Positions 17,794 to 56,682 of a stretch of 64,000 nt of DNA are shown one piece after another. A model generated the notes under the pieces. The model searched no databases. It had not been told where the DNA came from and worked only from the letters and a program-made list of their open reading frames with translations. The stretch comes from a virus. The translations under genes and the position numbers were made by a program. The stretch covers positions 96,001 to 160,000 of IMG/VR virus record IMGVR_UViG_3300047469_000312. One strand, given 5' to 3'. Within the stretch, counting starts at the first letter, position 1. Each line of letters starts with the position of its first letter.

Positions 17794-18597
17794 ATGGCAG
17801 TAGATGAAAACGTGCTGGCCCATTTGGAATCCATCCGACTGACGTATAACGTCACCATCCTGCACGCAGTCGAAGTAGGGAGTCGGGCGTGGGGACTGGC
17901 CAACCCACAGAGTGACCATGACATCGGTTTCATCTACGTGCGTCCTAAACACACGTACTTCCAGATCAACCAAGGGCATCGCGACGCGGCCTTGCTGGAA
18001 AACCGTGACACGCTCGAAATCAAGGTCGACGGCTTTGGCGACTTGAATGGTTTTGACATCGAGAAGGCCACTACCCTAGCGTACAACTCGAATCCGTCCA
18101 TCGTCGACTGGCTGCGACTGCCCGAGTATTATTCCACGGATCATGCGAATCGCTTGCGTGAACTGATGTGGAAAGGTTTCTCGACGTTAAAGCTGCGTCA
18201 GCAGAACGTCTCGATCTTGCGGCGCAATTACAAGACCTACGTCGAACCACGCCCCACTGTCTCAGTGAAGAAGTACCTGCACACCGTGCGGCCGCTATTG
18301 AATGCGATCTGGTTCGAACGTACCGCAACCTTCGACCTCGGCACGGAATGTCCGCCGGTGAATTACCTGGCATTGTGCAATGTGGCGGCGTACAACCACG
18401 ACCTGCTCGAAGGCTGCATGCAGCTGTTGCACCTGAAGCTTAAGGGCGAAGAGCGCGTGCAACGCATCGCTGGCATCGACCGTGTGATTGAGAAGATGCT
18501 AGAAAGCCGTGAGATCCCTCAAGGTCTCACCCGTATAGCTCCGGACATTGTCCAGTACGATCGTTTCTTTGCGGACGTTGTCCTTCAACAGAACTGA
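17794..18597 (+). CDS. Pol-beta-superfamily nucleotidyltransferase (YcgL/RlaP, Nuc-transf family)
   Basis: AVEVGSRAWGLANPQSDHDIGFIY, SNPSIVDWL, KKYLH.VRPLL. Confidence 0.88.
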   Translation: MAVDENVLAHLESIRLTYNVTILHAVEVGSRAWGLANPQSDHDIGFIYVRPKHTYFQINQGHRDAALLENRDTLEIKVDGFGDLNGFDIEKATTLAYNSNPSIVDWLRLPEYYSTDHANRLRELMWKGFSTLKLRQQNVSILRRNYKTYVEPRPTVSVKKYLHTVRPLLNAIWFERTATFDLGTECPPVNYLALCNVAAYNHDLLEGCMQLLHLKLKGEERVQRIAGIDRVIEKMLESREIPQGLTRIAPDIVQYDRFFADVVLQQN

Positions 18598-22073: not shown

Positions 22074-22319
22074 ATGGCCTACGCAAAAGTGCTCTGGCAT
22101 CCGGCACAGAACCGCGCGCTCACGGATGAGGAAGCCGCTTACGTAGATGCGTGCGCGATGCGGGCTATGGAAGGCTATATCTCCCGTGGTACGAATCTCA
22201 CGTCAGCAGACATCGCGGACATCTCGTACAAAACAGCGTTCATGATGCTAGACGTTCGTCAAGATCGCTACATGAAGATGGTCAAGTACGAGGTCAAAGA
22301 AGAAACCCGACCGGGTTGA
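22074..22319 (+). CDS. hypothetical protein
   Basis: SD TAAGGA. Confidence 0.65.
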   Translation: MAYAKVLWHPAQNRALTDEEAAYVDACAMRAMEGYISRGTNLTSADIADISYKTAFMMLDVRQDRYMKMVKYEVKEETRPG

Positions 22320-22330
22320 AGGATAGAATA

Positions 22331-23134
22331 ATGAGAAAGGACAAACTCGGCGATCGCATGAAGCGCTACGAGCTCTCGGACGATCGTCGTCTGATGCCGT
22401 TGCTGCCGATTGTCATCCGCATGGACGGGATCGCTTTCAGTACATTCACACGGGGTTTGAAGCGCCCGTACGACGAGCGGCTATCGACCTGCATGATCGA
22501 GACCACCAAGGGCCTGGTAGAGCGCTGGCACGCTACGTTGGGCTATACGCAAAGCGATGAAATCACGATCTTCCTGAAGAACGACGATCCGTTTGCTTTG
22601 ATGCCTTACGACGGCCGCGTGCAGAAATTGATCGGGGCATTTGCTTCGTCGGTCACGGGCAAGTTCATCCGCCACATGAATCAGCACCTGCCAGAGAAAG
22701 CCCACATCGATCCGGAGTTCGACTGCCGGGTCTGGCAATTGCCGAACATGGCAGAAGTCTTCAACATGTTCCTGTGGCGCGAATCGGATGCGACCACCAA
22801 CAGCATCCAGATGGCGGCGCAGTCGCAGTATAGCCACAAGCAGCTGCACAAGAAGGGCTGGTCGGACTTGAACGAGATGCTCTTCCAGAAGGGCATCAAC
22901 TACAACGACTACCCGGCCTTCTTTAAGCGCGGCACGTACGCGCGCCGCACGGCGGTGCATCGTTTGCTGACGGCTGAGGAACTGAACAAGATCCCCGAGC
23001 AGCACCGTCACCTGCATCAAGGGATTGTCACACGTAATGAGCTCATTGCGGTCGACATGCCTGCGATCCATTCGATCAAGGGTGGCATGGAAGAACTGCT
23101 CGGCCACATGAAGCCGCGCGCGTTATTGGGGTAA
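22331..23134 (+). CDS. thg1: tRNA(His) guanylyltransferase Thg1-like (3'-5' polymerase)
   Basis: LGDRMK.YE, IRMDG.AFS.FT, GYTQSDEIT, FDCRV, WRE.DA..NSI, KRGT. Confidence 0.93.
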   Translation: MRKDKLGDRMKRYELSDDRRLMPLLPIVIRMDGIAFSTFTRGLKRPYDERLSTCMIETTKGLVERWHATLGYTQSDEITIFLKNDDPFALMPYDGRVQKLIGAFASSVTGKFIRHMNQHLPEKAHIDPEFDCRVWQLPNMAEVFNMFLWRESDATTNSIQMAAQSQYSHKQLHKKGWSDLNEMLFQKGINYNDYPAFFKRGTYARRTAVHRLLTAEELNKIPEQHRHLHQGIVTRNELIAVDMPAIHSIKGGMEELLGHMKPRALLG

Positions 23135-42330: not shown

Positions 42331-42681
42331 ATGAGCAATTACGACGAAGTTAAGATTGACCTGGGGATGCCCGCCTCGCACAACTTGTTGTCTGAGACGG
42401 ATCGCATGGAGTACGCCGATGACACGGATTGCGTGGAGTCGGTCGAAGTAATGAGTGTTGCGGGGCACGGCTTCACGTGGGATGCCATCAGGCGAGTGCC
42501 GATGCCTGCGCGTCAGATCGGTTTTGAGATCAAACGCGACGGCAAGCATGAAGGCCTGGTGGTATTCAACACGGAGCTCGGGGATGTCACCCTGGCACCA
42601 ACAACGAACGTCGGGGCGCTCGAAGGGGTGATGATGACGGTGCGCGTCACGCGCGTGAACTACAATCGTCAGCTGCGGTAA
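42331..42681 (+). CDS. hypothetical protein
   Basis: 116-aa ORF. Confidence 0.65.
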   Translation: MSNYDEVKIDLGMPASHNLLSETDRMEYADDTDCVESVEVMSVAGHGFTWDAIRRVPMPARQIGFEIKRDGKHEGLVVFNTELGDVTLAPTTNVGALEGVMMTVRVTRVNYNRQLR

Positions 42682-42688
42682 AGCAGGA

Positions 42689-42742
42689 CCTTTAATGGTG
42701 GGGCGGCGGGATTCGAAAACTAATCGAACCTCCGTTAAAGGG
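42689..42742 (+). promoter_or_regulatory. SD-occluding leader hairpin containing anti-tRNA-3'-end sequence
   Basis: CCTTTAATGG/CCGTTAAAGG outer stem, TTCGA/TCGAA inner stem. Confidence 0.4.
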
Positions 42743-42749
42743 TAGTAAA

Positions 42750-43328
42750 ATGAAGAAGATCATCTCGCTGTTTCAACGCAACTGGGACAAGGACACGCAC
42801 GGGGAACGGCGTGTTCGTGATGAAGTGACTGCTGGTGCAGAATGGGTGTTAAATGGCGAAGGGGTTGCCACGCGCAAGTGGGACGGCGTCGCGGTCTTGA
42901 TTCAGGCAGGAAGCGCTTTCATGCGTTTCGATCTGAAGCAGGGTCGCCAACGGCCGGAAGGCTTTATCCCCGCCCAGCCTGAAGCTGATCCCGTTACCGG
43001 TCACTGGCCGGGTTGGGTGAGTGCGCAGACACCTGCCGGTAAGTACGTCATGGAAGCGGTCTTGAAAGCGCTGGACGCGTGGGGGGAAGTACCCGATGGA
43101 ACCTACGAGGTGTGTGGGCCGAAGATTGGCACTCGTCATGGGGCGAATCCGGAGAAGTTGACGGAGCACGTTCTGATCCCGCACGGGAAAGATGTGATCG
43201 AAGACTGTCCGCGCACGTTCTGGGAACTGAAGGCGTATTTGCAAGCCCGCTCGATTGAAGGCATTGTGTGGCACCACCCGGATGGCCGCATGGTGAAGAT
43301 CAAGAAGGCGGATTTCCCCGTTCAGTAA
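42750..43328 (+). CDS. ATP-dependent RNA ligase-like protein (DUF5565/RLIG1-like)
   Basis: ATRKWDG (motif I KxDG), HWPGW, GTYE.CGPKI...NP, EGIVW...DGRMVKIK (motifs IV/V). Confidence 0.75.
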   Translation: MKKIISLFQRNWDKDTHGERRVRDEVTAGAEWVLNGEGVATRKWDGVAVLIQAGSAFMRFDLKQGRQRPEGFIPAQPEADPVTGHWPGWVSAQTPAGKYVMEAVLKALDAWGEVPDGTYEVCGPKIGTRHGANPEKLTEHVLIPHGKDVIEDCPRTFWELKAYLQARSIEGIVWHHPDGRMVKIKKADFPVQ

Positions 43329-43332
43329 TGGT

Positions 43333-43368
43333 CATAGGCCCGGAGGGAAACCTCCGGGCTTTATGCCG
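43333..43368 (+). terminator. hairpin + TATGCCG
   Basis: CATAGGCCCGGAGG-gaaa-CCTCCGGGCTTTATG-CCG. Confidence 0.75.
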
Positions 43369-54034: not shown

Positions 54035-54430
54035 TTACGCGGTGGGCGCTGCTTTTTGGATGGCGGGAATCATCTTCCCGTTTTCATCCAGAGTGATCGT
54101 AAAGCTCAGACCCGCGGCATTACACTTCGCAATCATGCGCTCGATGTACTGCCACAGATCCTGCTCACTGGTCACCGGTTTGGGTTGCGTCGCATCCTGC
54201 GCTTCGCGTTCTTTTGTGAACGCAATCGCTGCAAAGATCGCGTGTGCAAAATTCAGTGTCACCCCTTGCGGGTTCGCAAGGACAGCAGCACCGAGTTTGG
54301 TAGGGTCGGCCGCATCCAGAACACCCAGACGTTGGGCTTCCTGGATAATGCCAGGGTTGTTAGGGCGATCACCACTGGGAGTCGTTTGAACCACACTGAG
54401 TACGGTGGTCGCTGGAGTAACAGTACTCAT
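54035..54430 (-). CDS. hypothetical protein; only convincing minus-strand gene
   Basis: SD GGAG before ATG 54430; natural composition; fills gap between + genes. Confidence 0.7.
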   Translation of the reverse strand: MSTVTPATTVLSVVQTTPSGDRPNNPGIIQEAQRLGVLDAADPTKLGAAVLANPQGVTLNFAHAIFAAIAFTKEREAQDATQPKPVTSEQDLWQYIERMIAKCNAAGLSFTITLDENGKMIPAIQKAAPTA

Positions 54431-54498
54431 TAGAATGCTCCAAGAAAGAGGATCGGTGTGGGGGTTCATCAGATATGTGTTTCCCTAGGGGAGGTTGT

Positions 54499-54783
54499 AT
54501 GCTTAATCTGATCATACTCAACTGCGACGATGGTCGCAAGCTCTACTATTCCAACGGACAACGCACGCCGCAGGGCTTCCATGAGAACATCCAGGACGCC
54601 ACGTTGTATCCGGACGGAACAGCAGCGAGTCATGATTTTGGGATGTTGCGCTCGACGCTACACGGTCAGTCGTTGGTTCGCAATGGCTTGATCCGGCCGA
54701 CCTGGAAACAAGTCACAGGTCACTTGACTGTGGAACAGTTCGGTCACGGCGAAGCAGTCACGAGTGCAGCGGTGCGTCTCTAA
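54499..54783 (+). CDS. hypothetical protein
   Basis: SD GGAGG. Confidence 0.7.
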   Translation: MLNLIILNCDDGRKLYYSNGQRTPQGFHENIQDATLYPDGTAASHDFGMLRSTLHGQSLVRNGLIRPTWKQVTGHLTVEQFGHGEAVTSAAVRL

Positions 54784-54802
54784 CTGCGAAAAGGTCATTA
54801 CA

Positions 54803-55093
54803 ATGGACAGAACAAAAAAGAAGATTGAAGTCCAGGCACGCGTGCGAGTCATTGGTAAGATCAAACGCCAGGAGCTCACGCGGCCTGAGAACTTCAACAC
54901 CGTCGTCGAAATTGAGCGCTCCGCCATCTACGCACCGGGGGCTCAACAGACGCTGGTGGAAACCGCTACGCGTAAATCATTCGTGGACCATTTCCTGAAC
55001 CGCATGCGCCACGACGCCGACGCGAAGCGCCGAATCGGTGGCACCAAGTGGGAGGTGGACGTGTTGGAGCTTCGTTATAAGGACGCAGTATGA
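54803..55093 (+). CDS. hypothetical protein
   Basis: SD AAGG. Confidence 0.6.
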   Translation: MDRTKKKIEVQARVRVIGKIKRQELTRPENFNTVVEIERSAIYAPGAQQTLVETATRKSFVDHFLNRMRHDADAKRRIGGTKWEVDVLELRYKDAV

Positions 55094-55629
55094 ACTTCGG
55101 TGAGATGGCTTGGCGACCCAGGCTGCGCCAGATCGGCTTTGCCCCGAAAGGTGAAGAGTGGCGTTGCTTTCAGCCGGGATTGAAGACTCGACCCGGTGAG
55201 TACTACTCGGAAGACATCACGCTCTCCCTCGCCGAGCGCTGGCACATGTTCCTCGGGTATCGGGAACATGATGCACGCGAGCTCCTGAAAGAGTTCGATG
55301 TGTATCAGATCGTGCACCTGGACGATCTCTTTCGCTTTGTCCTGCATCTGCCCAAGCCGCTCGCGCAGTTGTTGGACGAGGCGAAGATTCCGCGTACCAA
55401 AACGCTGACTCACTTTAACCCGTTGTTTGGGCCACCGCCTGAATTCCATGGTCCGCTGGAACCCTCAGGGCTGCTGCCTTACGGCGCACCGACGGGCAAT
55501 GACAAAGAGCTCGGGGTTCAGCCGTCGTTCAGACACATCGAGAACTTGCCGATCTTTTCGATGCCATCAGTGGAAAGCTGGCGCAAAGTAGCTGCGGCGC
55601 TTGCAGACCACACGCATAAGCAGGCATAA
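55090..55629 (+). CDS. hypothetical protein
   Basis: ATGA overlap. Confidence 0.7.
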   Translation: MNFGEMAWRPRLRQIGFAPKGEEWRCFQPGLKTRPGEYYSEDITLSLAERWHMFLGYREHDARELLKEFDVYQIVHLDDLFRFVLHLPKPLAQLLDEAKIPRTKTLTHFNPLFGPPPEFHGPLEPSGLLPYGAPTGNDKELGVQPSFRHIENLPIFSMPSVESWRKVAAALADHTHKQA

Positions 55630-55700
55630 AGAGAGTAGTTGGAGAAAACCAGTAATCTAACCAGGAGTATTGCCCACTTGTAATATGGAGGATAAGAAAC

Positions 55701-56063
55701 ATGCCGTCGAATGTAATTACTGCACGGCTCTATACGGGGAAGATGTTGTATCTCGGTAGAGTAGAGTCAGGAAAGCTCGGAGATTGGTATGGTGAATTGG
55801 ACCGCGCTGAAATCCTCCCAAATGAGGGAGATCTCTCGTCACTTTTCGATGCACTCTGTATGCACGTGCAATACAAGACTGGTCGGACGCTGTTTGATCC
55901 GAATCTCTTGAAAACACTGCAACAAAAGGCCCGCCTCTTTGAATTGGGGGCAGCTCGGGTGGTGGAGGGACAGGTACGCACCTTCCGCCATCGCATTATT
56001 GACACCCATGCGCTGGAACAACGCTTTAGTAGTCCCGTCTTAAAGTTATCAGCCACAATGTAA
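55701..56063 (+). CDS. hypothetical protein
   Basis: SD GGAGG. Confidence 0.7.
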   Translation: MPSNVITARLYTGKMLYLGRVESGKLGDWYGELDRAEILPNEGDLSSLFDALCMHVQYKTGRTLFDPNLLKTLQQKARLFELGAARVVEGQVRTFRHRIIDTHALEQRFSSPVLKLSATM

Positions 56064-56145
56064 GTAGAGGGCGGCCTACGGGCTGCCTTCTATGCCGTTT
56101 TTACGCTGTCGCCCCATCGGTTGAGTACCCATCCAAGGATAAATC

Positions 56146-56682
56146 ATGCCCACCAAATCAGGTCGTATCAAACTGGAAGACGTCCGTCAGGGCAAAACCA
56201 TCTTCCAGCCGTTCTTTGATCCGAAGCAAAAGAAGATGGTCCCCAAGGCTCACCTGGTCAGCTTCGGCATCACCTACCGTCTGGTGGGGCTGGTCGCTAA
56301 TGAGGACGGTATCCTCGAAGGCTACAGCCTGCCGATGTATTCCGTCAGCAAGCCGAGCGCCATGTCGCACAGTAAGACTCCGTCCCTCCTCACCTTTCAT
56401 CCGACACGTAACTTCGCGGTGGTGGAACTGCCCGACGGGTCGCTGTGTCTGCGCAATGGCTTCACGAGCCGTCGGCGCTGCCAGCAGTATCTCGAGGATC
56501 TGGAAGCCGGTCGGATCGACGAGAAGACGCACGGCATCGTGGTGGGAAGTCCTACCCGTGAAGCGGTGGAAAAGCACGCGAAGCTCGGCGGTGATCTGCC
56601 CGACCCGATCGAATTCAACGATCTGAAATGGGAACCCACGCGCGGCAGCGCGCCGGACTACAGTGGTCGTCAGGCAGGTTAA
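56146..56682 (+). CDS. hypothetical protein, paralog of 63476->64000
   Basis: MPTKSGRIKLEDVRQGKTIF vs MATKAGRAEVSDVRTGKTLW. Confidence 0.75.
   Translation: MPTKSGRIKLEDVRQGKTIFQPFFDPKQKKMVPKAHLVSFGITYRLVGLVANEDGILEGYSLPMYSVSKPSAMSHSKTPSLLTFHPTRNFAVVELPDGSLCLRNGFTSRRRCQQYLEDLEAGRIDEKTHGIVVGSPTREAVEKHAKLGGDLPDPIEFNDLKWEPTRGSAPDYSGRQAG

Follow-up and report, generated by a model that had tools for sequence, protein, structure and literature searches.

A conserved leader of jumbo-phage RNA ligase genes encloses the Shine-Dalgarno sequence and is antisense to tRNA-type 3′ ends

A group of jumbo phages carries, directly 5′ of the start of an RNA ligase gene, a real, conserved and previously undescribed leader RNA. 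The leader folds as a hairpin whose outer helix, P1, contains the Shine-Dalgarno (SD) sequence of the ligase gene, and it bears a segment complementary to a tRNA-type 3′ end. We give a probability of roughly 0.4 to the reading that it is a new SD-sequestering riboregulator that would be opened by exposed tRNA or tmRNA 3′ ends.

Results

An SD-containing hairpin precedes a phage RNA ligase gene

The window (the whole stretch of DNA analysed, 64,000 nucleotides) is a fragment of a jumbo phage from IMG/VR, kin to Burkholderia phage FLC9 and to Ralstonia phages RP12, RP31, FLC4-3B and FLC1-1B. The features discussed below all lie on its + strand:

42331–42681, + strand: ORF of 116 aa, directly upstream of the leader (from the ORF list)
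42689–42698, + strand: 5′ arm of P1, the anti-SD strand CCTTTAATGG (folds, covariation in 13 leaders, RNAalifold consensus)
42696–42717, + strand: segment antisense to a tRNA/tmRNA 3′ end (sequence, invariant columns, tmRNA matches, duplex energies)
42718–42731, + strand: variable loop and inner 3′ arm (folds, comparison of the members' sequences)
42732–42741, + strand: 3′ arm of P1 with the SD (AAAGG, 42737–42741) (folds, covariation, RNAalifold)
42750–43328, + strand: gene for an RLIG1-like 5′-3′ RNA ligase of 192 aa (profiles, KWDG motif, PDB match)
43338–43368, + strand: terminator-like GC hairpin with a GAAA loop, then TTTATGCCG (read directly from the sequence)

By its sequence, the gene at 42750–43328 encodes an RLIG1-like 5′-3′ RNA ligase. 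Its product matches phrog_14301 ('RNA ligase') over the full length (E = 9e-83), the Pfam family PF17720 RLIG1 over residues 126–187 only (29.8 bits against a cut-off of 25) and the PDB entry 9c6l, 'RNA ligase1' (E = 9e-5), and the translation contains the nucleotidyl-transfer motif KWDG at residues 43–46. Human RLIG1 ligates tRNA in vitro (PMC11494293). The same window encodes an RlaP nucleotidyltransferase (17794–18597; PF10127, E = 1e-46) and a Thg1-like protein of the tRNA 5′-end repair type (22151–23134; PF04446, E = 1e-30); together with the ligase they indicate that the phage possesses a set of tRNA-repair tools at dispersed sites.

Shortly before the ligase start, TGGTGGGGCGGCGGGATTCGAA at 42696–42717 is exactly antisense to 22 nt of a tRNA-type 3′ end. 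Its complement reads as a 7-nt T-loop (TTCGAAT), the 3′ strand of the T-stem, the 3′ strand of the acceptor, A and CCA. In the leader, UGGU thus faces ACCA, a G-rich run faces the 3′ strands of acceptor and T-stem, and AUUCGAA faces the T-loop. An earlier note on this DNA had described the segment in this way, as one nucleotide shorter than the canonical 23, and on re-reading the sequence the description proved exact. The same note had offered chance as one explanation of the resemblance. This is disfavoured by the single occurrence of TGGT-N8/9-GGRTTCGAA in the window against 0.01 expected from shuffles, and by its conservation in the phage clade.

There is no 5′ tRNA half to go with the segment, as the earlier note had also seen, since ARAGORN found 0 tRNA and 0 tmRNA genes in the 64-kb window and in the 172-kb contig; nor did it find any in the related loci L002–L004. 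The 5′ strand of the T-stem is absent beside 42696–42717. Rfam cmscan gave no family for positions 42660–42770 at E ≤ 10, nor for four loci at E ≤ 1, and a loose regular-expression scan of the 172-kb contig gave no convincing further copy of the leader.

In RNAfold predictions the hairpin spans 42689–42741 (z = −1.9 to −2.8) and is closed by a P1 of 10 bp (42689–42698 with 42732–42741). The AAAGG SD lies in the 3′ arm and ends 8 nt 5′ of the ATG at 42750. The claim that the outer stem covers the SD of the ligase-like gene thus stands, on the fold and on the covariation in 13 leaders described below. The 9-nt bulge that was to serve as a toehold fared less well: the G-rich interior is indeed weakly paired, but it is alternatively paired in the minimum-energy fold and does not form a clean bulge.

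The flanks suggest a transcription unit. The 116-aa ORF, which has no Pfam or PHROG match, is separated from the ligase gene by 68 nt, and FLC9 has its homologue, gp222, in the same location. Because the stop codon of the ORF lies 8 nt before the hairpin, the two genes are probably co-transcribed. The ORF may encode a functional partner of the ligase. On the other side, the terminator-like hairpin at 43338–43368 sits 3′ of the ligase stop codon and closes the unit; a consensus terminator scanner does not list it because its T-run is short. RP12 and L380 show the same hairpin-plus-TATGCYG arrangement 5′ of the leader, and hairpins of this type followed by TATGCYG fit a phage-specific terminator/promoter grammar.

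The leader is conserved in a clade of jumbo phages and its outer helix covaries

We found the leader directly 5′ of the ligase start in 13 jumbo-phage loci with 10 distinct sequences: the window, FLC9, FLC4-3B, RP12 and nine metagenomic relatives (L005, which is identical to L008, L006, L007, L010, L029, L375, L376, L380 and L389). The ligases of these loci share 49–82% identity with that of the window. The element is missing, and the upstream region unrelated, in about 150 further homologues of the ligase, which come from mycobacteriophages and small metagenomic phages. Conservation upstream of ligase homologues, which the earlier note had proposed as a check, is thus present in all 13 loci of this clade. 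A targeted scan of viral contigs found such leaders only before the ligase genes of the clade: of 58 matches to GGTG-N8/9-GGGATTCGAAA, three were genuine ligase leaders, and the others appear to be coding-sequence matches that arose by chance.

All 13 leaders fold as a hairpin with the SD inside P1 (z = −1.1 to −3.9). Each 3′ arm contains an AAGG, GGAG or GAAGG motif as SD; the arm motif ends 1–9 nt before the start codon, or 5–9 nt when counted from the motif itself. In a structure-guided alignment, 63 of the 65 cells at positions −1 to −5 of P1 are paired, compared with a mean of 39 and a maximum of 56 when the partners were shuffled among the sequences in 5000 trials. Two or three types of Watson–Crick pair occur at each of these positions, as in the variants CCUUAA/UUAAGG, CUCCG/CGGAG, CUUCG/CGAAG and CCUUG/CAAGG. 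RNAalifold recovers P1 from the structure-guided alignment, which was built in Python and is biased toward the structure it was built on; from plain MAFFT alignments it predicts no pairs, because these misalign the arms of the stem. Several P1 pairs of the + strand are G-U; the opposite strand would have A-C in their place. The covariation, together with these strand-specific G-U pairs, therefore indicates a selected + strand RNA structure and not a decayed gene or an att scar.

The surroundings of the leader have features of their own. Most members carry a GTAGTAA, CAGTAG or CAGTAA motif about 10–25 nt 5′ of P1 (for example, L002 2846–2856 and L375 520–541), which could provide stop codons in several frames, a processing site or a promoter element. 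The Ralstonia-phage members have a conserved noncoding region of about 250–300 nt just 5′ of the leader (L003 2120–2430, L004 2180–2470, L007 2620–2930). It holds a T-arm-like GG-TTCGA(A/G)T-CC hairpin on the + strand and ends with a GC-rich terminator and a TATGCTG-like motif; ARAGORN and Rfam do not recognize it, and it may be a tRNA-like or Y-RNA-like non-coding RNA tied to RNA repair. In L029 (2800–2935) and L389 (300–530) the leader lies directly 3′ of same-strand tRNA-like genes with visible D-arm and T-arm motifs, so that in these two lineages the ligase mRNA may be co-transcribed with tRNAs.

Invariant bases face the conserved bases of tRNA

Within the antisense segment, GGU, GG and UCGA are invariant in 13 of 13 leaders, and the next A is nearly so. 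Read antiparallel, these bases face A73-C74-C75, C61-C62 and 54/55–58 of tRNA, respectively. Positions 73–75, 61–62 and 54/55–58 hold the universally conserved bases of the tRNA 3′ part and the commonest discriminator base. The leader positions that face variable bases of the acceptor and T-stem vary. The complement has the canonical span of 23 nt in 6 of the 10 distinct leaders, 22 nt in the window and 24 nt in L380; it is shortened or diverged, to 20–21 nt, in RP12, L010, L029 and L389. Every leader has a (U/C)GGU on the inner side of P1, where it joins the SD helix.

Pairing within the leader accounts for some of this pattern. The variable region partly pairs and covaries with the cis 3′ arm (in the window, the inner arm within 42718–42731 pairs with part of the conserved segment), as seen in UGAUGG/CCAUCA of FLC9 and GGUGG/CCACC of L007, with A-U pairs in FLC9 where L006 and L007 have G-C; cis structure alone thus explains part of the observed variation. 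A UGGUGGG quasi-repeat, present twice in L006, L007 and FLC4-3B, permits two pairing registers. The AUUCGAA, however, varies from member to member between stem and loop positions, and in L029 and L389 the whole conserved segment is single-stranded in cis, beside an unrelated hairpin. Cis pairing therefore does not explain its conservation, which implies a ligand in trans.

The 3′ end of bacterial tmRNA is the best natural complement

Scanned with the antisense pattern, viral contigs yielded many tmRNA 3′ termini as well as tRNA genes, of which most were for tRNA-Ala. Three leader variants are the antisense of real tmRNA 3′ ends except opposite U70, where they have a G or a deletion; in the window the base is missing. 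A G at this place is what the 5′ strand of tmRNA itself has (the G3-U70 pair). Among 401 genomes of one bacterial class, 186 have a tmRNA-type end of this kind, with TTCGATTCCCGCCGCCTCCACCA as the dominant form. By its coordinates, TTCGATTCCCGCCGCCTCCACCA maps to the 3′ terminus of tmRNA in 5 of 5 checked genomes and in two further ones; the identification rests on G008, G026, G170, G255, G372 and G405, and the searched sets also included G007, G047, G149 and G304, on which alone we base no claim. Burkholderia and Ralstonia tmRNAs presumably share the dominant form.

The window complement differs from TTCGATTCCCGCCGCCTCCACCA by one T-loop base and the missing U70 partner. From the sequences compared (the 401-genome class sample and the phage tRNAs), the best natural complement of the leader appears to be the 3′ end of bacterial tmRNA. 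The predicted duplex with TTCGATTCCCGCCGCCTCCACCA has an energy of −41.6 kcal/mol for the window and of about −41.8 kcal/mol for L006, FLC4-3B and L007 (all four within −41.6 to −41.9), beating those with 80–82 of 82 phage tRNA ends, although such values overstate specificity because G-rich RNA pairs promiscuously with pyrimidine-rich strands. The FLC9 leader reaches −34.9 kcal/mol with the tmRNA end, and RP12, L010, L029 and L389 have only average predicted affinity for it.

Searches among the phages' own RNAs gave no comparable partner. The tRNAs encoded by FLC9, FLC4-3B, RP12 and two metagenomic relatives include none specific for the leader of the same phage; their matches are generic (T-loop, CCA and G-U-tolerant pairing), the best being tRNA-Ser of FLC9 and of the L006 phage, with 22 of 23 positions paired through three or four wobbles. 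Nine related genomes, complete relatives included, have no tmRNA above the cut-off, and in the complete relatives the 22/23-mer does not recur. On the host side, tRNA-Ala, tRNA-Ile and tRNA-Leu were obtained from named chromids, and for tRNA-Ala (of the Ralstonia GMI1000 megaplasmid and a Burkholderia sp. chromid) uninterrupted pairing is limited to CCUCCACCA. The comparison of the 22-mer with tRNA and tmRNA 3′ ends, suggested in the earlier note, therefore has a mixed outcome: a tmRNA end matches 21 of 22–23 positions, while no specific phage tRNA emerges, the host tRNA-Ala match is confined to the stretch just given and in the distant members the complement is shortened and no more than generic. 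A BLAST comparison of the element with plasmids and phages yielded no useful match, and in the full-text literature the tmRNA end was matched only in a Legionella context.

We also considered the + strand as a mimic of the tmRNA 5′ end (acceptor strand plus GGAUUCGA), but rejected it as the main reading, since the spacing agrees with the antisense layout of 7+5+7 and the mimic would leave the invariant GGU unexplained. Separately, a stretch of Alcaligenes phage vB_Af_QDWS595 annotated as empty (about 54430–56290 of the record; L464 500–2360) contains, according to ARAGORN, six tRNAs, a permuted two-piece tmRNA (tag ANDNVYAAAA) and two odd tRNA-like calls.

A model for opening of the leader

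We infer pairing in trans, the nature of the trigger and the direction of regulation as follows. In the + strand RNA, P1 would pair the anti-SD strand with the SD and keep translation low. Just inside P1, a segment of 20–24 nt, unpaired or weakly and alternatively paired in cis, would remain available to a complementary tRNA-like 3′ part, from the T-loop to ACCA, with the tmRNA end as the best fit. The trigger would be an RNA that offers a tRNA-type 3′ end as a single strand; since the target strand is base-paired in intact tRNA and tmRNA, it would have to be a damaged or unfolded form. Candidates are a 3′ fragment cut in the T-loop, a 5′-truncated tRNA or tmRNA with a bare acceptor 3′ strand, and an end that has not yet folded. 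A 5′-truncated tRNA is a substrate of Thg1-like repair. Nucleation could take place on the unpaired GGU/G-rich stretch and on the AUUCGAA loop, after which the trigger would zip through the short inner helix, P1 would lose its support and the SD would be freed. Accumulation of broken tRNA-like RNAs would in this way bring about synthesis of the ligase.

Cofolding, an equilibrium model and no proof of function, is consistent with these steps. With the 23-nt tmRNA end the predicted net gain is about 20–25 kcal/mol and P1 is dissolved; the unpaired probability of the SD rises from 0.39 to 0.60 in the window, from 0.21 to 0.59 in FLC9 and from 0.00 to 0.77 in FLC4-3B. In the same models an 11-nt acceptor strand is enough for the window (0.94) and too little for FLC4-3B.

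The earlier note's idea of a broken-tRNA sensor is plausible and in part supported, and it is better framed with tmRNA-type ends as the best complement. In its full form, the leader would be a phage RNA sensor of tRNA/tmRNA damage that turns on translation of a repair ligase by toehold strand displacement just at the time repair is called for, the T-loop-cut or 5′-truncated RNAs arising from host anti-phage or contact-dependent tRNases; this we regard as possible, though doubtful.

Discussion

The main rival to a riboregulator opened by RNA is a translational operator bound by protein, in which the ligase or another tRNA-binding protein would repress or activate translation and no RNA would act in trans. 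The conserved GGU/G-rich bulge and the UUCGAA loop would then be protein contacts. Such an operator would resemble those of ThrRS and of ribosomal proteins, which imitate the RNA substrates of these proteins. In its favour, the SD lies within a conserved hairpin that adjoins the start codon, and the conserved bases occupy bulge and loop positions, as protein contacts typically do. The segment corresponds, moreover, to the 5′ strands of an acceptor/T-stem stack, including the G opposite U70, and with the 3′ arm it partly resembles a tRNA minihelix; the enzyme family of the regulated gene acts on tRNA (PMC11494293). Yet no T-arm is formed, the hairpin loops being of 7–20 nt and of varied sequence, a mimic of a minihelix would give no role to the invariant GGU that faces ACC, and in L029 and L389 the segment lacks the partner strand of such a mimic. 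We consider a protein operator a real but somewhat unlikely possibility.

The covariation of the variable region bears on a second view, in which the leader is purely structural and sets basal translation or mRNA stability, its antisense segment having been exapted from an old tRNA or tmRNA fragment and having no partner today. SD-masking hairpins are common, the variable region is partly compensated in cis, and in two lineages the ligase genes adjoin tRNA genes that could have donated the sequence. A structural role without a ligand can hardly explain, though, why the unpaired GGU and UCGAA are invariant down to 49% ligase identity, or why 6 of the 10 distinct sequences keep the canonical 23-nt geometry, and we think it unlikely.

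Lower still we place sensing of intact, uncharged tRNA or tmRNA in the manner of a T-box discriminator, with only the free ACCA pairing with (U/C)GGU and the remaining resemblance to tRNA stabilizing stacking or being ancestral. Four base pairs cannot outcompete P1, and the conserved UCGAA and GG, 12–16 nt away, would be left unexplained. The leader has neither Stem I nor a specifier, and neither the T-box nor any other Rfam family matched at E ≤ 10. What speaks for such sensing is the GGU, invariant in 13 of 13 leaders at the junction with the SD helix and analogous to the UGGN bulge of T-box leaders; on balance it is quite improbable.

A relic at the DNA level, either a decayed minus-strand tRNA/tmRNA gene or an attP/attB core, was the other alternative raised in the earlier note. 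The 3′ ends of tmRNA and tRNA genes are classic integration cores, and the 22-mer is nearly identical to the tmRNA end. The covariation largely refutes this explanation, as the helix changes are compensatory and the G-U pairs are valid only on the + strand. The position and orientation before the ligase start are constant in phages of different hosts, no tyrosine integrase (PF00589) was found in the 172-kb contig, and the missing T-stem 5′ strand, the lack of any tRNA/tmRNA call and the single copy in complete relatives point the same way. The sequence also departs at U70 from tmRNA ends, whereas an att core should be identical to the 3′ end of the host gene. A relic is therefore very improbable.

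A retroelement-like primer-binding site, at which an annealed tRNA 3′ end would act as primer for DNA or RNA synthesis, is hardly credible: the segment begins with TGG and complements about 22 nt of a tRNA-type 3′ end (at least 18 nt being the criterion), but its flanks are the 116-aa ORF and the ligase gene and not a retroelement, its close link to the SD and start codon points to translation, and the Ralstonia phage members start with CGG, which leaves the terminal A mismatched and is bad for priming.

Returning to the riboregulator that we favour, its closest known counterparts include the T-box leaders. These tRNA-sensing leaders of Gram-positive aminoacyl-tRNA synthetase and amino-acid genes pair UGGN with NCCA. 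The phage leader would likewise read a tRNA-type 3′ end by base pairing, with (U/C)GGU opposite ACCA, and its output would be SD sequestration, as in the translational T-boxes of actinobacteria. Unlike T-boxes (RF00230), it has no Stem I, specifier, T-box consensus or Rfam match, and it is about 50 nt long (~53) compared with about 200. Its complementarity runs for 20–24 nt into the acceptor strand, T-stem and T-loop, which intact tRNA hides, and it is found in phages of Burkholderiaceae hosts, where it would control an RNA ligase.

Other systems share single traits with the leader. Primer-binding sites of retroviruses and LTR retrotransposons also start with TGG and complement the last 18–22 nt of tRNA including CCA, but the leader lies within an SD-hiding hairpin of a bacterial-type mRNA with no context of reverse transcription. 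The 22-nt span equals that of a T-loop-cut fragment, as in targeting by tRF-3 (tRNA 3′ fragments of 18–22 nt). Much as in engineered toehold switches and in natural antisense pairs that nucleate at loops or bulges, such as CopA-CopT, the SD is locked in a helix with adjacent single-stranded nucleation sites and a displaceable short helix, whereas the proposed trigger is the end of a housekeeping RNA and not a dedicated antisense RNA. The rtcBA RNA-repair operon under RtcR follows the same logic of inducing an RNA ligase in response to tRNA damage, but its sensor is the CARF domain of the RtcR protein and acts on transcription, whereas here it would be an mRNA leader acting on translation. By analogy, the most that the leader would do is to combine a T-box discriminator with a toehold switch.

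Even without the idea of an RNA acting in trans, the leader is an undescribed conserved cis-regulatory RNA motif of jumbo phages, and since cultured members exist (FLC9, RP12 and FLC4-3B) it is directly testable. To our knowledge, leaders that read tRNA come essentially from one family, the T-box, and the induction of RNA repair by damaged tRNA is known from the protein sensor RtcR. If the proposed reading is true, a phage leader of 50 nt that reads the broken 3′ end of tRNA or tmRNA would embody a novel and very compact way of sensing: a counterpart of RtcR made of RNA alone, a reader of tRNA with no relation to T-boxes and a natural toehold switch triggered by tRNA fragments. It would also tie the RNA-repair genes of these phages (the RLIG1-like ligase, the Thg1-like enzyme and RlaP) to the tRNA-targeting defences of their hosts.
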